A stretch of 63,371 nt of DNA, counting the filler, from Asterionella formosa (taxonomy: Eukaryota): the NCBI GenBank assembly GCA_002256025.1. It is 24 parts of 24 records of this genome, joined end to end, with 100 filler letters (N's around TTAATTAATTAA, not from the genome) between each part and the next. Parts side by side here need not be neighbours in the genome. Positions count along the whole stretch, not along the records: positions 26,556 to 29,098 come from NKIB01015137.1; positions 29,199 to 31,740 come from NKIB01015138.1; 22 more parts are not named here. The stretch is one strand, 5' to 3'. Both the position numbers and the translations under genes were made by a program. How positions within the stretch are numbered: the stretch's first letter is position 1; the number at the start of each line of letters is the position of its first letter. A model generated the notes under the pieces. It worked only from the letters and a program-made list of their open reading frames with translations. It did not search any database and was not told the origin of the DNA. Shown here piece by piece: positions 2,663 through 58,206 of the stretch.

Positions 2663-5225
2663 CAGTTTCGGTAGATGAGGACATTTTGGTGGTCGTGGAG
2701 GCGGTGCACACAGCAATCCTACGGAAAGCTATCATACTGACACTGCTAACCCTGTGCCTGTTCCACATGCTCGTATGTTAAATACATGGGGTCATAATAC
2801 TCGTCCATCCGGTTGGGGTACCGTGCCCCGTGCCGATCCTACCGAGAATACATCTGCCCAGGAAATTTCAGTGGTCACGAACCCTCCTGCTGGTCAGATA
2901 GTGACTTTTGTCCCTACTACACAACAGCAGATTGCTGATCGCCATTACAGAGGTATGTGCGATAATAGCGATGCTATTTATAATGACTCGTTGAGTATAT
3001 CTCACGTTAGTCATCACCTGAATAATATTGTTTATTTACAGGTTGAATACACTATGGATACCGCTGTTAATGTTATGCGGGATATATATAACTCTATTGA
3101 TGGACATGATGTTCCACATACATATCAGGGCCCAATTCCGGTTTCCTGTTTTACTTCTAAGGATATATTAACATCAATTGATTTGATTCCGATGTCCCTT
3201 CTAGCGCCAAGATTGGTGGATAATATACCGATACATAAAATACTACGAGTATTATTCGATAGTGGAAGATCGTTATCCTTAGTACATGAACGGGTTATGC
3301 CTCAAGGTATTTCTTTGTCTGACGAGACTACCCAACTAATACATACCATAGCTGGTACTTATTCATCTCATGCCAGTGTCATGCTATATGACCTGATTTT
3401 ACCAGAATTTAATCGATCCGCTCATATTTTACAACAAAAGTGTCAAGTCTTTAATGGTCTATGCACATTTGATGTTATTATAATAGGACGTGATTTCCTA
3501 CGTCAAGTTGGTTTAGCCATTGATTTCGTAAATAACACCATGTCCTGTATGGATATGATTGTTCCTATGCATCCTCTCACATTCTTTGATGATAGAGAAT
3601 GTTTACAAGATGTATTATTATATTTCGATGCACCTATGATTGTGGAATCTTAATATGCGCTGGAAATTAAAGCTTCTGAATATAATTACGTAAATATTGA
3701 TACAGTGGTGGATAAACAAATACATTTGACAACATTACAACGATCATGTTTACGATCTATATTGGTTAAATATCAAACATTATTTGATGGCAAATTAAAA
3801 GTCTATAGCCTCACAAACAGGTAAATTTGGAATTATTATCAAATGCTGTCCCTTGTCATCAACGAGCATATCCGGTCGCTCATATTCATTTAGAAGTTTT
3901 CAAAACGGAATTACAACGATTATGTGATATTGGAGTCCTACAAAAATGTGGTGCTTCTAAATGGGCATCTCCCACTTTTATTATTCCAAAAAAGGATGGA
4001 AGTGTCCGATGGGTATCAGATTTTCGTGAACTTAATAAAGTCATCAATCGCAATATATATCCTTTGCCTCGAATACAAACTATTCTCACTAAACTTGCTG
4101 GATATGTATTTTTCACCAAATTGGATGTTTCCATGCAATACTATACTTTTGCATTGGATGTGGAGAGTCAAAACTTGTGTGTTATTTCAACTCCATTTGG
4201 TTTATATAAATATTTACGCCTGCCTATGGGGGTGAAACAATCATCTGACATTGCACAAGAAACTATGGAACAGATCCTTAGTGATTTAGATGATGTGGAA
4301 ATTTATATTGATGATGTGGGTTGTTTTTCAATGAATTTTTCAGATCACCTTCATTTATTGGACACTATTTTACATCGTTTACAGATAAATGGTTTTACAA
4401 TTAATCCATCTAAGTGTGAATGGGCCGTCCAAGAGACAGATTGGTTAGGCTATTGGTTAACTCCTAATGGACTGAAACCTTGGTCTAAAAAAGTCCGAGC
4501 ATTGATTAATATGTCTTCACCTACCAATCTTAAACAAGTTCGATCATTTCTCGGTGCTGTTACTTACTATCGAGACATGTTTCCTAGACGATCGCATGTT
4601 CTTGGACCACTTACGGATTTAATTGGAACTAGTCCCTTTGTCTGGTTACCTATCCATCAACAAGCTTTTGAAGAAATGAAAGCATTGTTAGTTGCAGATA
4701 CACTCATGCGTTATCCTGACCATAATCTCCCTTTTCATATCTTTACTGATGCCTCTGATTATCAATTAGGGTCGGTCATTATGCAAAATGATCTCCCAGT
4801 TGCTTATTATTCTCGCAAATTATCTGCTGCTCAAAAGAATTATACTACTATTGAAAAAGAATTACTTTCTGTGGTAGAAACTTTCAAAGAATTTCGCTCT
4901 ATGTTATTGGGCGCAGTTCTACATGTTCACACTGATCATCGAAATCTTATTTATAATACATTACATACACAACGTGTTCTACGATGGCGACTTTACATTG
5001 AAGAATACCATCCTACTTTTCATTATGTGAAAGGGACTGACAATGCTATTGCAGATTCCATCTCTCGCCTCCCGAGGCTTGAGTCTTTGGTGGAGGATGA
5101 TATTGATATTGGACCGAAATCTCCAACATCAACTTCCACTTCTACTTTTTCAATTGAATTAGATGATGAACCTCTGCTTACATGTTTCCTTAATCATCCC
5201 ATCTTGACAGACAATATTCAATATC
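2663..5225 (+). mobile_element. Ty3/gypsy LTR retrotransposon pol fragment (protease-RT-RNase H), disrupted
   Basis: Protease LRVLFDSG; RT WASPTFIIPKKDGSVRWVSDFRELNK, LPMG and YIDD; RNase H FTDASDYQLG and YTTIEKELL. In-frame stop at 3651-3653 and a frameshift near 3810. Confidence 0.93.
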
Positions 5226-21261: not shown

Positions 21262-23670
21262 ACGTCCTCCAGATAAGGTCACTATGTCATTTCATAACAA
21301 AACCACTCAATTTGGTTATCATGGTTTACCAATATTGATTCCCCTACAACTTCATCAATATTCAATCAACACACCATGTTGAACGTCTCAATTCATTGTC
21401 TCATAGTATAGAATAAGGGAATATCAATATGTCATTCATAAAACAAGGAACATCCTCGAGATGAGGTCACTATGTCATTTCATAACAACACCACGAACAC
21501 CATTTGGTAATCATGGCTGGTTTACCAATACTGACTCCCCTTTAACTTCATCAAAATTCCATCAACTTGCCTTGTTTAATGTCTCTATTCACTGTCCAAT
21601 AGTATAAAATAGGGCACTATCAATATATAATCTATACAACAAGAAACATCCTCCAGATGAGGTCACTATGTCATTTCATGACAAAACCACACCATTTGGT
21701 AATGATGGTTTCCCAATACTGATTCCCCTATAACCTCATCAATAGTCAATCAACACAACCTGTTGAACATCTCAATTCATTGGCTCATATATTAGATTAG
21801 GAAACTATCAATATGTCATTCATACCACTTGGAACGTCCTCTAGATGAGGTCACTATGTCATTTCATAACAAAATCACACCATTTGGTAATCATGGTTTA
21901 CCAATACTGACTCTCCTATAGCTTCATCAGTATTTAGTCAACCCACCTTGTTAAACGTCTCAATTCACTGGCCCATAGTATAGAATAAAGTATTATCAAT
22001 AAATAATTAATACAACAAGGAACGTCCTCCAGATAAGGTCGCTATGTCATTTCATAACAAAACCACTGAATTTGGTTATCATGGTTTACCAATATTGATT
22101 CCCCTACAACTTCATCAATAGTCAATCAATTCATCCTGTTGAACGTCTCCACTCATTGGCTCATAGTATAGAAATAAGGTTCTATCAAAATATAATTAAT
22201 ACCACAAGGAACATCCTCCAGATGAGGTCACTATGTCATTTCATGACAACACCAGACCAATTGGTAATGATGGCTTCCCAATATTGATTACCCTGTCACT
22301 TCTTCAATATTCAATCAACACACCATGTTTAACGTCTCTATTCACTGTCCAGGAACTGTCAATATATAATTTATACAACAAGAAACATCCTCCAGATGAG
22401 GTCACTATCTCGCTCATTTCCTAACAAAACCACTCAATTTGGTAATCATGGTTTACCAATACTGATTCTCCAATAACTTCATCAATACTCCATCAACCCA
22501 CCTTGTTAACGTCTCTATTCACTGTCCAATAGTATAAAATAGGGCACTATCAATATATAATCTATACAACAAGAAACATCCTCCAGATGAGGTCACTATG
22601 TCATTTCATGACAAAACCACACCATTTGGTAATGATGGTTTCCCAATACTGATTCCCCTATAACATCATCAATAAACAATCAACACATCCTGTAGCAACA
22701 CACCATATTGAACGTCTCCACTCATGGGCTCATACTATTGAACAAGGGACTACCAATATATCATTTATACAACAAGAAACATTTTCCAGATGAAGTCACT
22801 ATGTCATTTCATAACAATATCACACCATTTGGTAACGATGGTTTCCCAATACTGACTCCCCTATAACTTCATCAATATTTCATCAACCCACCTTGTTAAA
22901 CGTCTCAATTCACTGGCTCATAGTATAGAATAGGGTACTATCAATATATAATTAATACAACAAGGAACGTCCTCCCAATAACGTCACTATGTCATTTCAT
23001 AACAAAACCCCCATTCAATTTGGTAATCATGGTTTACCAATATTGATTCCCCTGTAACTTGATCAATATTCAATCAACCCACCTTGTTAAACGTTTCAAT
23101 TCACTGGCCCATAGTATAGAATATGGTACTATTAATATATAATTAATACAACAAGGAACGTCCTCCAGATGAGGTCACTATGTCATTTCCTGACAAAACC
23201 ACACCATTTGGTAATGATGGTTTCCCAATACTGATTCCCCTGTAACTTCATCAATATTCAAACAACACACCATATTAAACGTCTCTATTCACTGGCTCAT
23301 GGTATAAAATAGGGCACTATCTTATACAACAAGAAGGAACGTCCTTCAGATGAGGTCACCATGTCATTTTCTAACAAAACCAATCAATTTGGTAATCATG
23401 GTTTCCCAATACTGATTCCCCTTAAACTTCATCAATACTTTATCAACACAGCCTGTTGAACGTCTCAATTCATTGGCTCATAGTCTAGACTAAGGGACTA
23501 TCAATATGTCATTCATACCACAAGGAACGTCCTCTAGATGAGGTCACTATGTCATTTCATAACAATACCACACCATATGGTAATAATGGTTTACCATTCC
23601 TGATTCCCCTTTAACTTCATCAATAGTCAATCAACACATCCTGTTGAAGGTCTCAACACATTGGCTCATA
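21262..23670. repeat. 188-bp satellite array, about 13 diverged monomers
   Basis: The (A/G)CTATG anchor of GAGGTCACTATGTCATTTCATAAC recurs at 21281, 21469, 21665, 21853, 22041, 22230 and on to 23546; modal period 188. Confidence 0.95.
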
Positions 23671-23809
23671 CATCTAAGCCGTGAAATACGCCACTTTTCG
23701 AAATTTCGTCTACGTATGAGTGTTAATTATGTGGTACTTCACATGCATTAATGCCACTCTTCACGTAAAAAAGATTACTTTTAACGGTTTCATGTGAAGT
23801 TTTAACGGT
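23671..23809 (+). mobile_element. CATCTAAG-terminus element (type A end) inserted into the satellite
   Basis: The satellite monomer breaks at ..GGCTCATA|CATCTAAGCCG; the following sequence is near-identical to 36470 onward. Confidence 0.75.
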
Positions 23810-28290: not shown

Positions 28291-31200
28291 CAACAAATGG
28301 GTTGTTCTATGGACAGGTGTAGTGATGGTGATGTGGAAAATTGCGATTTGCAGATGGATTGTTCAGAGATCAAATCTTGGACATGCCATTGTTGCATACA
28401 AAGAATCGCCTAGCAAATGGCCTCCAAATCCATCAGATGGTCAAAGTGCCTCAACACATATGATAGTATCTAATCATTAATTCCTGTAGTTTGTTGTCAT
28501 TATACCTGTTCATTGGTTCACCAATGCAACCAACAAAGCACCACCTTTGTTGATCAACTGGGTTGATTTAATATTGCTAGTGGTTTTCTCATGTTGTGCT
28601 CGAGGGGTACCTTAATGGCCAATTTTTCCAAATCAAGAAAGGACTGACATAAAGTACAACTCTATTGTAGGCATTTGTCCAGAGGCTCCACCAAGACTTC
28701 GGTGAAACTCGAAAAAGAAGTTTTACCTATCATAGGAAGAACAGGCAAAAGCAAACCACCCGGAAAATGCAACGTTTGACTACATACCGTTACGCACGGC
28801 GAAGGTTGCATGTGATTCGTTAGGGCACCAGGTATGACACAGGTAGTACCGGTATATAATACCGGTAGGCAACTATAATGGAAATGGAGTATGGTACAAG
28901 GTATCAGGTATATAACGTCAATAAATAACCCCTTTTGAATTTTGTGGATGACACATCCAAACAAATGGATTTGTTAAAGTATTACCTTTTTGTATAGATC
29001 TATATCGTTAGACAAAGAAGACTATAGATAGAGACGTTCGTTTCTCTTTCCGTTTCTATATTCTTATTGTGAGTTTACTAATCTAGTTTAGGTTGTTCNN
29101 NNNNNNNNNNNNNNNNNNNNNNNNNNNNNNNNNNNNNNNNNNTTAATTAATTAANNNNNNNNNNNNNNNNNNNNNNNNNNNNNNNNNNNNNNNNNNNNTA
29201 CCGTCGCTTTCCCTCTGTTGGTCTGCTTTTTATGGAAGCCAGCAAAGATTATGAGGTCCACAATAATCTTGCCTTTACATGATCATGTAGTAGTATGCTG
29301 AGTGATTTATGTCGTTGATGAGTGAATGTTCAAAGAGCGCAAATGCGCTCTGTATCATCAAATGACAGCGCCGTAGAACGCCTGTATAGGGCCTTCCAGT
29401 CCCTCCTCTGTATTGTCCACTCAATAGGCTCCAACAACTATGGTTGAGGCATTAGAAAGGATTCGAACACAATGATGCTGTGCATGTATGAGTAGTATGA
29501 GTAGCAGCCGTCATGGCAGTGTCATCGAGCCAACTGATTTCCATGTAGCAAAAGATATATTGGTGGTTTCAATGAAGGCTACTATGTAACTATGTAGGCT
29601 AGGGTTTAAAAGTTTGTAAAAAGAGGCGGGGACAAAATATCTTTTTCCAATAAATAAAATAAAATAAATATTAGTTATGATGTCGTTCTGTTGATTTCGA
29701 CATGAAGTATGGCAGACGAACGGATTCTGGATTCCGTCCTGTGGTACACTCGTGTGTAGAATATATATATTGTATGTAGCCTGTTCATATTTGACCTACG
29801 TAAATTTCGAAGTGTCTGGTAAAACTGAAATGCAACTCAACAGCACTACAGGTAGGTTGTATGCCGTACAAAGTACCAGTAGTATATTGGAACAAACACA
29901 TGTCTAATACGTATGCATGTGACAGAGATGAAGACGACGGACATACAACTGGTACAGTACAATGTACTCAGTCATCACTGTCTGCAAGGCATCATGTCTG
30001 ATTTATTGCTGCTGTTGCGCATACATTATATATATCGACGCAAACCCCCAGATGGTGGACGGTGGTGTGCTATTCATCTACATCTCCATCTCCATGTCCA
30101 CGTTGACAACTTTCTGAACAACAAGCTGAAGGAAGGATAAAGGCAATCACAAAATTGATTACGAACTTTACTCTTAAACACTTCAAACCTAAGGACACAA
30201 CATCAAAGTTCCTTAACCGATCTATACAAACCAAAGACCCATTTGCATACTTTTACTTATTGGCGAAAATACATAAGACACCGCTAACAACCCGGCCCAT
30301 CATCAGTGTTAGCGGAAGTATCTGCCATGGGCTAGGCAAATGGACTGATGTCAGTCTTCAAAAAATCACTCAACATCTACCATTTACCCTATCAAGCTCC
30401 TTTGAACTCGTTCATGATTTTCGCTCCATTAATAATGTTCTAACAACCGCAACCTTATTTACTATGGACGCAATTTCTATGTACACTAACATAGACACAA
30501 CCCACACACTTTCCGTCATTAATAAATTCCTACGCATTGACAGACCAGACATCTGCCTCAACAAAGATATTAATATTGATGCACTCATGAATGCACTCAA
30601 AATTATCATGCGACATAACATTTTTAAATTCGGAAATACATACTGGATCCAAACATCTGGAACAGCTATGGGGACACCTCTGGCACCAACATATGCCACT
30701 CTCTATTTTGCAATTCACGAAATACAAAATCCCAACGTTTCCACAAATATCCTTCTATAGAAGGTATATTGATGATTGCTTTATAATCTGGGTCCCTACA
30801 TCAACTACCCATATCAAGGATGAAAAATCACACAACTTGTTTATCAGCTTGATGAATAATTTTGGCATACTAAAATGGAATGCAGAACCACGGAAATTAT
30901 CAACAACTTTCCTGGATCTCACAATTTCTATCAATCAACATACCCGTTCTATTGATACAACACTATTCGAAAAATTTATGAATCCCTATCTCTACATACC
31001 ACAACATAGCGCACACCCTCCTGGTGTCCTTCGCGGCAATTCTTACCTCACTACGGAATTTCTCCGGAAATCAATGTACTATCCAAAGGTTGATAATCGC
31101 TTATAATCGCCCTAAAAATATTGGTAATTATACATCACCACGGAAACTGAGATCAGACACCACTTTAGTCAGTACTCACCTACTTACAACACAACTTGAT

Positions 31201-31339
31201 ACTGAACGGGACACATCAACCTCTACTAGGTCCATACTACCCTCCCCTGCTTCCACTCCTGGTGCAATTTCGCAGCCAAACACATCTGCCCACCCCCCGC
31301 ACGCACCATGACTAAAGTAAAACAAGACTACAGATCCAA

Positions 31340-31396
31340 GCCAACTGATGAAGCCCCTTCAGGCGAAAAGTAACATTAGTCTCATTACTTTTTGGC
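31340..31396 (+). ncRNA. Type I hammerhead ribozyme
   Basis: Stem I GCCAA(31340-44)/TTGGC(31392-96); core CTGATGA(31345-51)+A; stem II GCC/GGC with loop CCTTCA; GAAA(31365-68); stem III AAGTAA(31368-73)/TTACTT(31385-90); unpaired cleavage base T31391. Confidence 0.88.
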
Positions 31397-31442
31397 AACT
31401 TAAGTAGTCACCTCATCGTCGCTTGGATAATAGTCATTGTAG

Positions 31443-31470
31443 CCCTCACCCCTACCCTACCCTAACCCTA
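31443..31470 (+). repeat. Degenerate reverse-complement telomeric repeats (CCCTAA-like) at the PLE 3' end
   Basis: Sequence CCCTCA CCCCTA CCCTA CCCTAA CCCTA. Confidence 0.7.
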
Positions 31471-31841
31471 GCACTAATAGTGCATACGTAATCTCTGAAC
31501 TGACATGGTACTCAACCAGCACATGACTTGCTATTTTGACAGTAACTGCTGCAAAGGCAAATAAGTGGTGGGCAAACAAAAATGCCCTCTAGTGTTGCAA
31601 TATTACATGCTTCTGTTGGAACTGGCCCTGTAAAATTATTCTTTCCAAAAGATAATACAACTGTCAAGAAAGTAAAATTTTAGAACAAATGGTCAAGAAA
31701 TAGAAGTTTCAGATAAGCAAAACTTACTCAATAAAGACATNNNNNNNNNNNNNNNNNNNNNNNNNNNNNNNNNNNNNNNNNNNNTTAATTAATTAANNNN
31801 NNNNNNNNNNNNNNNNNNNNNNNNNNNNNNNNNNNNNNNNG

Positions 31842-35860: not shown

Positions 35861-35881
35861 AACCCTAACCCTAACCCTAAC
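35861..35881 (+). repeat. Interstitial telomeric repeat (AACCCT)3.5
   Basis: Perfect AACCCTAACCCTAACCCTAAC. Confidence 0.8.
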
Positions 35882-49098: not shown

Positions 49099-50204
49099 CT
49101 AGTCAACATCAGCAAAGCCCTCATATCCAATGCTCTTCCAGGTATTGGTGATTGTTTGAATTGAGACTCTAGCCCATGCCATCTCTACCCATTGTGCAAT
49201 GTGGTGCCTTTGCACCTTGGGATTATCCACATTGGCAACCATGTAGTCTTCCCAATATCCTCTCATGTAGTCCTTGAAGGGCTTATTAACTCCTACATCC
49301 AACACTTGAAGTCTAGATGTGTAGCCTGGGAGGACGAAATCAATCTCAGTGCCGCAATTTTTAATTGCATCAACACAACGTCCTACCTTGTGGACAGTAA
49401 AATCATCCATAAGAAGGTGAGTAGGCTCACCGCCTTTTCCCAACGCAAATGGTTGCCAAACTTTTTCGATCCATTGTAAAAATATGTCTGTATCAACCCA
49501 AGCTTTGGGTTGACAAGCGTATTTAATACTGACCGGAAAAAGTTGTTGATTGTTGTCTAGTAATCCCAATTGCCTGGAAATACGTCCATCCCTTGTTCCT
49601 GTAAATACAATGAATGGTGGCAACTTCTCACCACTCATTGTCACCCCTAACAACACAGTGCAACGATTCGAATTTCCTGTTGTTCGAAGCCCAATGGTCC
49701 TTTCGCCTCGGGTTGCCAAAGTCTTTGATCCAAACATGTCAAAATTGATGTTTGTCTCATCAATATTGACAATGTTTCCAGCAGGAAATTCGAACGCAGC
49801 AATTTGATTGTTGACGTAGGAAACAAAATCTTGAATTGTCTCCTGATCCAGCCTTGTATTTTGGGCGACACGAGTCACACGCCTAATGACAATGTCCTCA
49901 CGGGCAAGCCAGCGCTTGATCCGTTTTTCAAGTGCCTTCAGCGACACATTTTCGTTCCCAGGTTGCCTCTTAAGCTCAACACTGAGCATCCTGGTGGTGC
50001 AGGCCCTATCTTGAAGCCGCAACTGGTCAAAAAGAGTCTTCAATCCTTCGAAATCAGCAGCACTTTTTGGAGAGCGGCCCGGGTGAGCGATTTTTTTCAT
50101 CAACACCTGCCTCTGAATCACACCTTCTTCCTGCAGAGGAATCTCCGCCACCTCCGCCGGAACCACAACCATTGCACCATCCAGCATGGACTTCCAGCTC
50201 CGGA
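49099..50204 (-). mobile_element. pogo/Tigger-like DDE_1 transposase ORF (5' truncated by contig end)
   Basis: Catalytic motifs NIDET, LLMDDFTVH and LQVLDVGVNKPFK, plus GEKLPPFIVF and KAWVD; uninterrupted frame. Confidence 0.92.
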
Positions 50205-55572: not shown

Positions 55573-57870
55573 ATATGTCATTCATACAACAAGGAACATC
55601 CTCGTGATGAGGTCACTATGTCATTTCATAACAACACCAGACCATTTGGCAATGATGGTTTCCCAATACTGCTTCCCCTATAACTTCATCAATATTCAAT
55701 CAACCTACCTTGTTAAACGTCTCAATTCACTGGCCCATAGTATAGAATAAGGTACTATCAATATATAATGAATACAACAAGGAAAGTCTTCCAGATGAGG
55801 TCACTATGTCATTTCATAACAAAACCACTCAATTTGGAAATTATGGTTTACCAATGTTGATTCCGCTTTTACTTCATCAATATTCAAAAAAAACACCATG
55901 TTAGACATCTCAATTCATTGCCTCATAGTATAGAATAAGATACTATCAATATGTCATTCATACAACAAGGAACATCCTCGAGATGAGGTCACTATGTCAT
56001 TTCATAACAACACCAGACCATTTGGCAATGATGGTTTCCCAATACTGATTCCCCTATAACTTCATCAATATTCAATCAACACACCATGTTAGACGTCTCA
56101 ATTCATTGCCTCAAAGTATAGAATAAGATACTATCAATATGTCATTCATACAACAAGGAACATCCTCGTGATGAGGTCACTATGTCATTTCATAACAACA
56201 CCAGACCATTTGGCAATGATGGTTTCCCAATACTGCTTCCCCTATAACTTCATCAATATTCAATCAACACACCATGTTAGACGTCTCAATTCACCGGAAG
56301 GTACTAGTCTAGAATAAGTCACTATCAATATGTAATTCATACAACAAGGAACATCCTTCAGATAAGCGAGGTCACTATGTTATTTCATAACATAACCACA
56401 CATTTTGGTAATGATGGTTTCCCAATACTGATTCCCCTATAACTTCATCAATTTTCAATCAACATACCAAGTTGAACGTCTCCATTCATCGGAACGTAGT
56501 TTAGAGTAAGTCACAATCAATATGTCATTCATACAACAATGAACATCCTCTAGGTGATGTCACTATGTTATTTCATAAGAAAACCACACCATTTGGTAAT
56601 GATGGTTTCCCAATACTGACTCCCCTATAACTTCATCAATATTCAATCAACACACCATGATGAACAGCTCAATTTATCGACACTGAGTATAGAATAAGGT
56701 ACTATCAATATATAATGAATACAACAAGGAACATCCTCCAGATCATATCACTATGTCATTTCATAACAACACCAGACCATTTGGTAATGATGGTTTCCCA
56801 ATACTGATTCCCCTATAACTTCATCAATATTCAATCAACCGACCTTGTTAAATGTCTTTATTCACTGTCCAATAGTATAAAATAAAATACTATCAATATG
56901 TCATTCATACAACAAGGAACATCCTCGTGATGAGGTCACTATGTCATTTCATAATATAACCACACCATATGGTAATGATGGTTTCCCAATACTGAATCCC
57001 CTATAACTTCATCAATATTCAATCAACCCACCTTGTTTAACGTCTCAACTCCTCACTGGTGCATAATAAAGAATACGTTACTATCAATATATAATTAATA
57101 CAACATTGAACGTCCTCCAGATGAGGTCACTATGTCATTTCATAACAAAACCACACCATTTGGCAATGATGGTTTCCCAATACTGATTCCCCTATAACTT
57201 CATCAATAGTCAATCAACAAACCATGTTGAACGGCTCAATTCATCGGAATGTAGTATAGAATAAGTCACTATTAATATGTCATTCATACAACAAGGAACA
57301 TCCTCTTGATGATGTCACTATGGTATTTCATAACAAAACCACACAATTTGGTAATGATGGTTTACCATTACTGTTTCCCCTATAACTTCATCAAAATTCA
57401 ATCAACACACCCTGTTGAACAGCTCAATTCATCGGCACTGAGTATAGAATAAGGTACTATCAATATATAATGAATACAACAAGGAACATTCTCGAGATGA
57501 GGACACTATGTCATTTCATAACAAAATCACACCATTTCGTAATGATGGTTTACCAATACTGATTCACCTATAACTCCATCAACATTCAACCAACAAATCA
57601 TGATGAACCGTACTTTTTTACTGGGACAAAGTATAGAATAAGATACTATCATTATATCATTCATACAACCAGCAAGGATCGTTTTCCAGATGATATCAAT
57701 ATGATATCATTCTTTCATAACAAAACCACACCATTTGGTTATGATGGTTTCCCTTTACTGATTCCTCTATAACTCCATCAATATTCAAGCATTGCATTAT
57801 GTTGAACGTCTCCGTTCACTGGCACAAAGTATAGAGTACGGTACTATTAATTTATCATTCATGCAAAAAG
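55573..57870. repeat. 188-bp satellite array (same family as 21262-23670), decaying toward its right edge
   Basis: About 12 monomers with the same consensus; divergence increases after about 57550. Confidence 0.95.
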
Positions 57871-58206
57871 TACCATCTTCATGATTAGGTGTGTTGGTAT
57901 ACAATTCTATATCAATGCCGCACACCCACCTAATCTTTGCTACTGACTCTTCTGTATCTCTATCAATATGCATCCAATGTATGATGTGGAATGATTCAAT
58001 TTACTGGAAGATATTGTACAATAAGTTACTATCACTATGCAAGTCACTGGAAGATAGTATACAATAAGTTACTATCAATAGCTATATCATTCATGCAATT
58101 AGCACANNNNNNNNNNNNNNNNNNNNNNNNNNNNNNNNNNNNNNNNNNNNTTAATTAATTAANNNNNNNNNNNNNNNNNNNNNNNNNNNNNNNNNNNNNN
58201 NNNNNN

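Follow-up and report, generated by a model that had tools for sequence, protein, structure and literature searches.

Among the Penelope-like elements (PLEs), Athena and Coprina are devoid of an endonuclease and have been described to attach to exposed G-rich telomere overhangs via reverse-complement telomere repeats that reside beside hammerhead ribozymes (PMC8557442). In the published account of the Terminons, telomere repeats directly follow the hammerhead fold at the 3' terminus (PMC6431247). The hosts described for Coprina encompass fungi, Selaginella, the kuruma shrimp and the diatom Phaeodactylum tricornutum, with Coprina-1_Alen as an example of such elements (PMC13159263), and the hammerheads reported for protist PLEs include type I variants in which helix III is large, with Thalassiosira oceanica among the sources (Cervera and de la Pena 2014, PMC4209133). 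Here we describe a locus of similar organisation in a stretch of 63,371 nucleotides from the assembly GCA_002256025.1 of Asterionella formosa, the whole of which is referred to as the window. The locus is likely to be a dead copy of an endonuclease-less PLE of the Athena/Coprina type from a freshwater alga, with two open reading frames (ORFs) in its intact form. Since the order of reverse transcriptase (RT), hammerhead and telomere repeats matches the published accounts of Athena, Coprina and Terminons, the window displays a known architecture, and the copy is a new example of an established design that adds no new principle.

The family to which this copy belongs shares with Coprina, as portrayed in the literature, the DKN motif, the regions RT1-7, the thumb and the absence of a GIY-YIG domain (PMC13159263, PMC8557442), and, as in the descriptions of Coprina, we find a hammerhead in flanking repeats, direct repeats at both ends and, in the window copy, reverse-complement telomere-like repeats at the 3' end. 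Whereas Coprina usually contains one ORF, the window family contains two, as does Coprina-1_Alen. It further differs from Coprina by an extra A after A9 of the hammerhead. With the Athena elements and Terminons of bdelloid rotifers, the family has in common the absent endonuclease, the presence of more than one ORF, 5'-truncated copies and head-to-tail arrays, and the window copy, in accordance with the same description, carries a 3' hammerhead that leads directly into reverse-complement telomere repeats (PMC6431247). A likeness to the rotifer elements is also found in the nearest ESM Atlas clusters, for which Rotifera are commonest. In contrast, Terminons reach 40 kb and harbour many accessory genes, whereas the units of the window family extend over 3.7-6.9 kb, and the repeats of rotifers are ACACCC or TCACCC, whereas those in the window are CCCTAA-like.

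The window consists of 24 length-sorted contigs of 2,532-2,565 bases each, connected by linkers of the form N44-TTAATTAATTAA-N44, and contigs that are neighbours in the window are not neighbours in the genome. The element is entirely contained within the twelfth contig (29199-31740; 2,542 bases) on the + strand (Table 1). No other copy was detected in the window by all-against-all blastn of this contig against the other 23, and a 20-mer of its tail occurs once. Relatives were obtained from a protein search with the first RT piece, which gave 400 sequences at E<=0.001 among 1,017 candidates, and from a pattern scan of metagenome contigs, which returned at least 608 matching stretches, at least 585 encoding a relative, and from which 78 loci were kept. 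Viral contigs showed no match either to the tail pattern or to P0126, an intact relative of 624 aa. In addition, the contigs of four public runs were aligned to the element contig, three of them DNA from three studies (X1, X2 and X5) and one an RNA library (X17); the runs that match the stretch are labelled as algae, freshwater or lake metagenomes.

Table 1. Coordinates of the element, its ribozyme, its 3' end and the sequences that surround it, numbered along the window.
Feature	Position	Strand	Description
Upstream flank, unrelated high-copy repeat, outside element	29199..30106	.	No RT or ORF1 match; depth
(CATCTC)n microsatellite in upstream flank	30075-30100	.	Tandem repeat listing
RT fragment 1	30107..30727	+	P0126 residues 112-318, 90% identity over 207 aa; motifs FAYFYLLAKIHK, TSGTAMGT
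RT fragment 2	30729..31037	+	Different frame; residues 320-422, 84% over 103 aa; catalytic YIDD motif
RT C-terminal fragment	31042..31311	+	Third frame; residues 529-619, 80% over 91 aa at 31042-31299
Type I hammerhead variant	31326..31409	+	Descriptor, relatives-only covariance model, fold, covariation
Hammerhead outer stem	31326-31331 with 31404-31409	+	Internal loop between outer stem and helix I
Hammerhead proximal helix I	31340-31344 with 31392-31396	+	
Hammerhead core CUGAUGA	31345-31351	+	Extra A at 31352
Hammerhead helix II, 3 bp	31353-31355 with 31362-31364	+	
Hammerhead GAA	31365-31367	+	Start of GAAA
Hammerhead helix III, 6 bp	31368-31373 with 31385-31390	+	
Hammerhead U17	31391	+	Predicted cut between 31391 and 31392
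Tail from ribozyme to repeats, 33 nt	31410..31442	+	GGATAA at 31425-31430
C-strand telomere-like tract, 4-5 degenerate units	31443..31470	+	CCCTCA CCCCTA CCCTA CCCTAA CCCTA
Downstream flank, different high-copy repeat	31476..31740	.	Contigs of X1, X2, X5

An earlier, sequence-only reading of the stretch had proposed that RT, stop codon, hammerhead and CCCTAA-like repeats follow each other on one strand of one contig, and all four are indeed found in this order on the + strand. The decay that was also noted there is reflected in the distribution of the RT over three overlapping open frames (30107-30760, 30591-31106 and 30982-31311), the last of which is closed by a TGA stop codon at 31309-31311. 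The pattern of fragments obtained by tblastn with P0126 as reference defines three lesions. The first is a 5' truncation at about 30107, which is preceded by a stop codon at 30104-30106 and upstream of which homology is absent, the second a frameshift at about 30728, where other copies in X1, X2 and X5 contain two extra bases, and the third the loss of residues 423-528 at 31037/31042, where the flanking pieces are directly joined. As no remnant of ORF1 was found in the contig by tblastn with the ORF1 proteins of 55 relatives (best E 0.55), we conclude from the sequence that the copy is dead, lacking ORF1, the first 111 codons of the RT and 106 internal codons in addition to being frameshifted. 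What it retains is the RT from codon 112, in broken form, and the whole 3' module comprising hammerhead, GGATAA tail and CCCTAA-like units. The complete module of RT, ribozyme and telomere repeats claimed by the earlier reading thus stands with respect to the 3' module, whereas the RT is far from complete. Such a module is not new for diatoms, since Coprina in Phaeodactylum (PMC13159263) and the hammerhead variant of Thalassiosira oceanica (PMC4209133) are already described in the respective publications.

The identity of the protein is illustrated by its relatives. The best full-length proteins among the relatives listed contain about 620 aa and are up to 60% identical, and the closest relative cluster, P0012, is 88% identical and has members of 624 aa. 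These RTs show the motifs TDKNLGP ('DKN'), FAYFYLLAKIHK, LAKIHK and RYIDD, and DKN, RT and Thumb are named as conserved PLE domains in PMC13159263. An AlphaFold model of the relative P0001, based on 35 aligned sequences, was predicted with a pLDDT of 88.5 and a pTM of 0.82. In a Foldseek search with this model, the top three matches are Candida telomerase RTs (6zd6, 6zdu and 6zdq; E 1e-8 to 2e-8, TMq 0.39-0.44), with further telomerase matches from Tribolium, Tetrahymena and human, whereas group II intron RTs are interleaved from rank 4 and the LINE-1 RT is found at rank 9. The nearest ESM Atlas clusters are annotated as DUF8422 and HTH_animal, with Rotifera as commonest phylum, and as RVT_1, with Cnidaria as commonest, which serves as a lead only. 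The family thus shares a common RT fold and motifs with Penelope/Poseidon, Neptune and Nematis elements and with telomerase RT, the latter providing the best structural matches. Unlike telomerase, it is mobile, multi-copy and organised as a two-ORF unit.

Intact copies and upstream ORFs, which the sequence-only reading had recommended to look for, are both found among the relatives. Their units start with a hammerhead, which is followed by a leader of about 60-150 nt, ORF1, the RT ORF, a 3' untranslated region (UTR) and another hammerhead. ORF1 encodes about 320-820 aa, without a Pfam domain in the five proteins scanned, and the RT ORF about 600-700 aa. The units span 3.7-6.9 kb and are found in tandem or between direct repeats. 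In eight contigs (L010, L037, L059, L063, L067, L068, L071 and L077) two hammerheads are placed at this distance, with L010 showing a head-to-tail pair of diverged copies and no telomere repeat between them. Where the ends of the 3' direct repeats are readable (L067, L063, L077 and L059), they are located 14-62 nt past the ribozyme. This arrangement corresponds to the pseudo-LTR or tandem organisation that has been described for PLEs in PMC8557442 and PMC4209133. Several peculiarities were observed in individual relatives. A long microsatellite, of the type (CAA)n, (GT)n, (AG)n, (GTT)n or (TCA)n, opens the 3' UTR right after the RT stop in L008, L011, L015, L025, L028, L030, L042 and L047, and contigs of relatives often end at such a microsatellite. 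In the distant relative L059 (6916-7100), the 62-nt tail following the hammerhead is tandemly doubled at the 3' joint, with the second copy starting within 2 nt of the predicted cut, which gives the impression that the tail RNA was copied on its own after cleavage. L085 comprises the terminal 10 kb of a contig of 1.19 Mb that is catalogued under a Candidatus Aminicenantes metagenome-assembled genome. At 2827-4143 it contains an open frame of 438 aa with 33% identity (E 2e-57) to the eukaryote-type RT of the family, the similarity extending from the N-terminus to slightly beyond the YIDD-type motif. This frame overlaps with the beginning of genes of bacterial type (AAA_2 ATPase, nucleotidyl transferase, GHMP kinase and methylmalonyl-CoA mutase) and could either be an assembly chimera at the contig end or reflect a transfer into a bacterium.

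The ribozyme in the window contains the core and the helices of a hammerhead with one inserted A and is supported by covariation among relatives, which together define its assignment from sequence; cleavage is predicted to proceed after U17. A covariance model was built from eight relatives, excluding the window. In the 63-kb window, this model finds a single strong match at 31340-31396 on the + strand (44.4 bits, E 4.7e-10), compared to 11.9 bits (E 0.64) for the second-best match at 29529-29564. The latter shares only the first 10 bases of the hammerhead, comprising helix I plus CUGAU, and is probably due to chance. Applied to 88 sources, the same model yields 47 matches at E<=0.01, none of which is on the minus strand. 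A strict descriptor yields 49 matches in 40 of the 78 loci, exclusively on the strand of the RT, where 0.25 would be expected from shuffled sequences, and the signature of the family (CUGANGA, A, G ... C, GAAA) is found 58 times on the RT strand, distributed over 48 of the 78 loci, and never on the opposite strand. A descriptor relaxed by one mismatch was too loose, as evident from 22 matches on the minus strand, and served only to note L007 and L024. In an alignment of the relatives, which was fitted to the covariance model and thus favours pairing, 93.2% of the cells are paired, compared to 68.9% after shuffling (reached by 0 of 500 shuffles) and to 30-44% when partners are slid, and 11 of the 13 pairs show changes on both sides. 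The extra A after A9 is present in 30 of 33 unique relatives, and H17 is a U in 32 of them and a C in the remaining one. A long interrupted helix I, akin to the outer stem in the window, is by eye recognised in many relatives. Contigs from the RNA library X17 span 31297-31588 in an uncut state, which bears neither on transcription nor on cleavage.

Comparable ribozymes are known from other contexts. The hammerheads of protist and fungal PLEs, as presented in PMC4209133, are also of type I with a large helix III and varied helices I and II, and are located in the flanking repeats of the elements; the extra A and the interrupted long helix I, noted here for the window family, may also be present in these published variants, the comparison being based on their description in the text. 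Chrysanthemum chlorotic mottle viroid has been described to contain an extra A between A9 and G10.1 in its plus-strand hammerhead, which remains capable of cleavage (PMC3705267). Although the viroid ribozyme is unrelated in context, it shares this insertion, which is the norm in the window family.

Beyond the ribozyme, the tail leads to the telomere-like tract and from there to the end of the insertion. More widely conserved than telomere-like sequence is a GGATAA motif, which 12 of the 45 unique relatives contain at 58-78 nt from the start of the core, compared to 3.4% expected (P 2e-8), and which is at +80 in the window. The tract scores 42 when compared to (CCCTAA)n, a value that was reached by none of 200 mononucleotide shuffles of both strands (mean 16.4, maximum 27), and is described by TRF as four copies of period 5. 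The joint between element and downstream repeat was mapped to 31475/31476, where contigs of X1, X2 and X5 match from 31476 onward and differ before. Since these contigs match only from this position, the downstream flank belongs to a repeat family of its own and the end of the insertion is at 31475; the telomere-like tract, which finishes five bases earlier, thus terminates the insertion. The joint is bridged by X2 contigs with one difference and by X17 contigs with none (31420/31425-31588) and is therefore not an artefact of assembly. These features agree with the telomere-attaching type of architecture that the sequence-only reading had assigned to the locus. The tail is common to other copies in X1, which show a loose end at 31420, and in two contigs of the X17 library the shared sequence gives way to a different one at 31448. 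The multi-unit tract is hence not a constant internal component of all copies, which suggests that it belongs to the joint in the window. It may have been copied from the element RNA, it may be the remnant of a joined DNA end, or both.

Several results weigh against the interpretation of the locus as a telomere-attaching PLE. With respect to the RT, HMMER did not identify a Pfam RT in the three ORF pieces of the window or in 11 relative RTs (nine full-length, P0126 and one translated from a locus), and these pieces and relatives as well as five ORF1 proteins were devoid of any significant Pfam family, although the library did detect families on other ORFs of the window as control. A profile search with A1 retrieved no RT among PDB sequences but only chance matches at E>=0.1. 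As these searches are silent, the assignment of the RT rests on motifs, homologues and fold. It is in this way that the element very probably qualifies as an endonuclease-less PLE, with a putative placement, made by description, among the Athena/Coprina elements. Concerning the ribozyme, helix II in the window is limited to 3 bp, and the free energy of the fold as a hammerhead (-16.3 kcal/mol) is 2.1 kcal/mol above the minimum (-18.4 kcal/mol). The Rfam hammerhead models did not match the window contig at E<=10 and, among 14 relatives searched at E<=1, they matched only L057, with 24.4 bits to Hammerhead_3 compared to a gathering score of 48.5. With Rfam being silent, the hammerhead is decided by the strand-specific conservation and covariation in relatives. 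Concerning the telomere, the 5' joint contains a CATCTC microsatellite and no telomere repeat, and both flanks are non-telomeric, which the sequence-only reading had already pointed out, with the suggestion that the copy may mark a former chromosome end or a healed break. A multi-unit telomere array beside the hammerhead was found in none of the 78 related loci, and the scores of 34 unique regions downstream of hammerheads against (CCCTAA)n-type sequence do not, overall, exceed those of random windows (Mann-Whitney P 0.10). Only three of the 46 unique regions downstream contain a telomere-like 9-mer, compared to an expectation of 0.33 (P about 0.005), and the 3' direct-repeat edges of L063, L077, L059 and L067 join their flanks without a telomere repeat.

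Local-alignment scores of at least 16 are, however, commoner in the downstream regions (five of 34) than in random windows (eight of 340), and a telomere-like 8-mer is found in four of 46 unique regions, where 1.33 are expected. In L001, L036 and L083, whose hammerheads resemble the one in the window, a telomere-like unit is found 107-111 nt from the start of the core, right before the start codon of ORF1, compared to 98-126 nt for the tract in the window. The related metagenome loci originate from organisms with possibly different telomere repeats and their short-read contigs collapse repeats, which renders the test in relatives weak in both directions. The telomere-like tract is thus weakly supported as a feature of the family, and of the conserved CCCTAA tract anticipated by the sequence-only reading there remains its presence in the window copy, whereas its generality does not hold.

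The most serious alternative, which we regard as unlikely, interprets the CCCTAA-like tract as leader or direct-repeat sequence of the element itself or as an interstitial tract that has arisen by chance. The tract would in this case be silent on integration, and the copy would have entered an interstitial site, for example during double-strand-break repair within another repeat. Such a scenario would account for flanks that are both ordinary high-copy repeats and for the absence of a telomere repeat at the 5' joint. Every part of the element contig is multi-copy, the summed contig depth of the flanks is much above that of the RT body, and the upstream flank is several-fold higher in X1 and X2. 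It would also be consistent with the single telomere-like units that some relatives contain within the leader between hammerhead and ORF1 and that most relatives lack, and with an unrelated interstitial (CCCTAA)3 elsewhere in the window (35863-35880). However, no other telomere-like match in the contig comes close to the tract, which ends five bases before a joint that was mapped from three studies, and the departure of RNA-library contigs of another copy from the shared tail at 31448 shows that the multi-unit tract is not shared internally by all copies.

A second alternative, in which the element would be a canonical endonuclease-bearing PLE or belong to another class of RT and would merely have lost its endonuclease during decay, appears highly improbable. 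Canonical PLEs carry a GIY-YIG domain fused to the RT, which is absent in the window family. In light of the heavy damage of the window copy, this absence alone would prove nothing, but the intact relatives of 596-695 aa end where the window copy ends, with their stop located 25-40 residues past a conserved IIAYHRPRN motif. A GIY-YIG domain was neither found in the precomputed domains of the 120 relatives listed nor in Pfam scans of 18 relative proteins (11 RTs, five ORF1s and two downstream ORFs of L085), and the five ORF1s are devoid of a nuclease domain. The earlier claim of an element without GIY-YIG has thus held, both for the stop codon in the window and for intact copies, where an endonuclease would have contradicted it. 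At the C-terminus, the final 90 residues fold into a conserved beta-alpha-beta domain that, when modelled alone, was predicted with a pLDDT of 76.4 and for which a wide search with VIA-align gave no clear fold match (best Z 3.4). The domain might conceivably hold a novel nuclease or another activity. Least probable of all is a juxtaposition by assembly chimerism in a very repetitive metagenome sample, since, although all parts of the contig are multi-copy and 3,207 X1 contigs align to it, contigs from X17 (same sample) and X2 (another study) bridge 31297-31449 and 31420-31588 with 0-4 differences.

For the endonuclease-less PLE that we favour, attachment to telomeres is inferred from the published model for the class. 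According to this model, the 3' end of the element RNA would be C-rich, complementary to telomeres and exposed next to the folded ribozyme. This end could pair with a G-rich 3' end of DNA, either at a telomere overhang or at a break, and thereby prime reverse transcription, and since the DNA end itself would serve as primer, an endonuclease would in the proposed model not be needed. The 5' truncation would result from an RT that does not reach the 5' end of the RNA, and the hammerhead would cut after U17 in tandem or read-through transcripts and so set the RNA 5' end of the next unit. A more speculative and rather doubtful extension of this mechanism is that the RNA released by the hammerhead, containing the cut end, the GGATAA tail and the CCCUAA-like end, may serve as short template which is copied by the telomerase-like RT onto G-rich ends. 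The 62-nt tail of L059, duplicated at its 3' joint, provides a hint in this direction, as does, although a weak measure, the summed depth of hammerhead and tail, which in three DNA runs amounts to 2-10 times the depth of the RT body. If true, the element would patch chromosome ends or breaks with units of tail plus telomere and would thereby come half-way to a telomerase that is equipped with a template RNA of its own.

Endonuclease-less PLEs are the closest mobile relatives of telomerase, and each well-resolved 3' module therefore bears on telomerase-like priming at DNA ends. In this respect, the family described here is possibly useful, as it is large in aquatic metagenomes and combines two ORFs with a hammerhead variant missed by Rfam and a GGATAA motif at fixed distance, and as one of its sub-groups contains a telomere-like unit at a fixed distance from the ribozyme. 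The descriptor and the covariance model can be used for annotating such elements in algal genomes, and the module offers a defined RNA for assays of cleavage and priming.

Other parts of the window show features of their own. The perfect interstitial (CCCTAA)3 at 35863-35880 precedes an A-rich tract, lacks a hammerhead in its vicinity and gives a weak hint at TTAGGG as telomere unit of the organism. An ABC ATPase encoded in the window matched generic bacterial clusters in the ESM Atlas and was thus uninformative on taxonomy. Two contigs (21262-23809 and 55573-58106) are almost entirely made up of a satellite whose period is about 188 bp, with copies that are 74-86% alike within and between the two contigs. 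Genes of mobile elements are found at 3809-5224 and 49102-50202 and encode an LTR-type RT with RNase H domain and a DDE_1 transposase.

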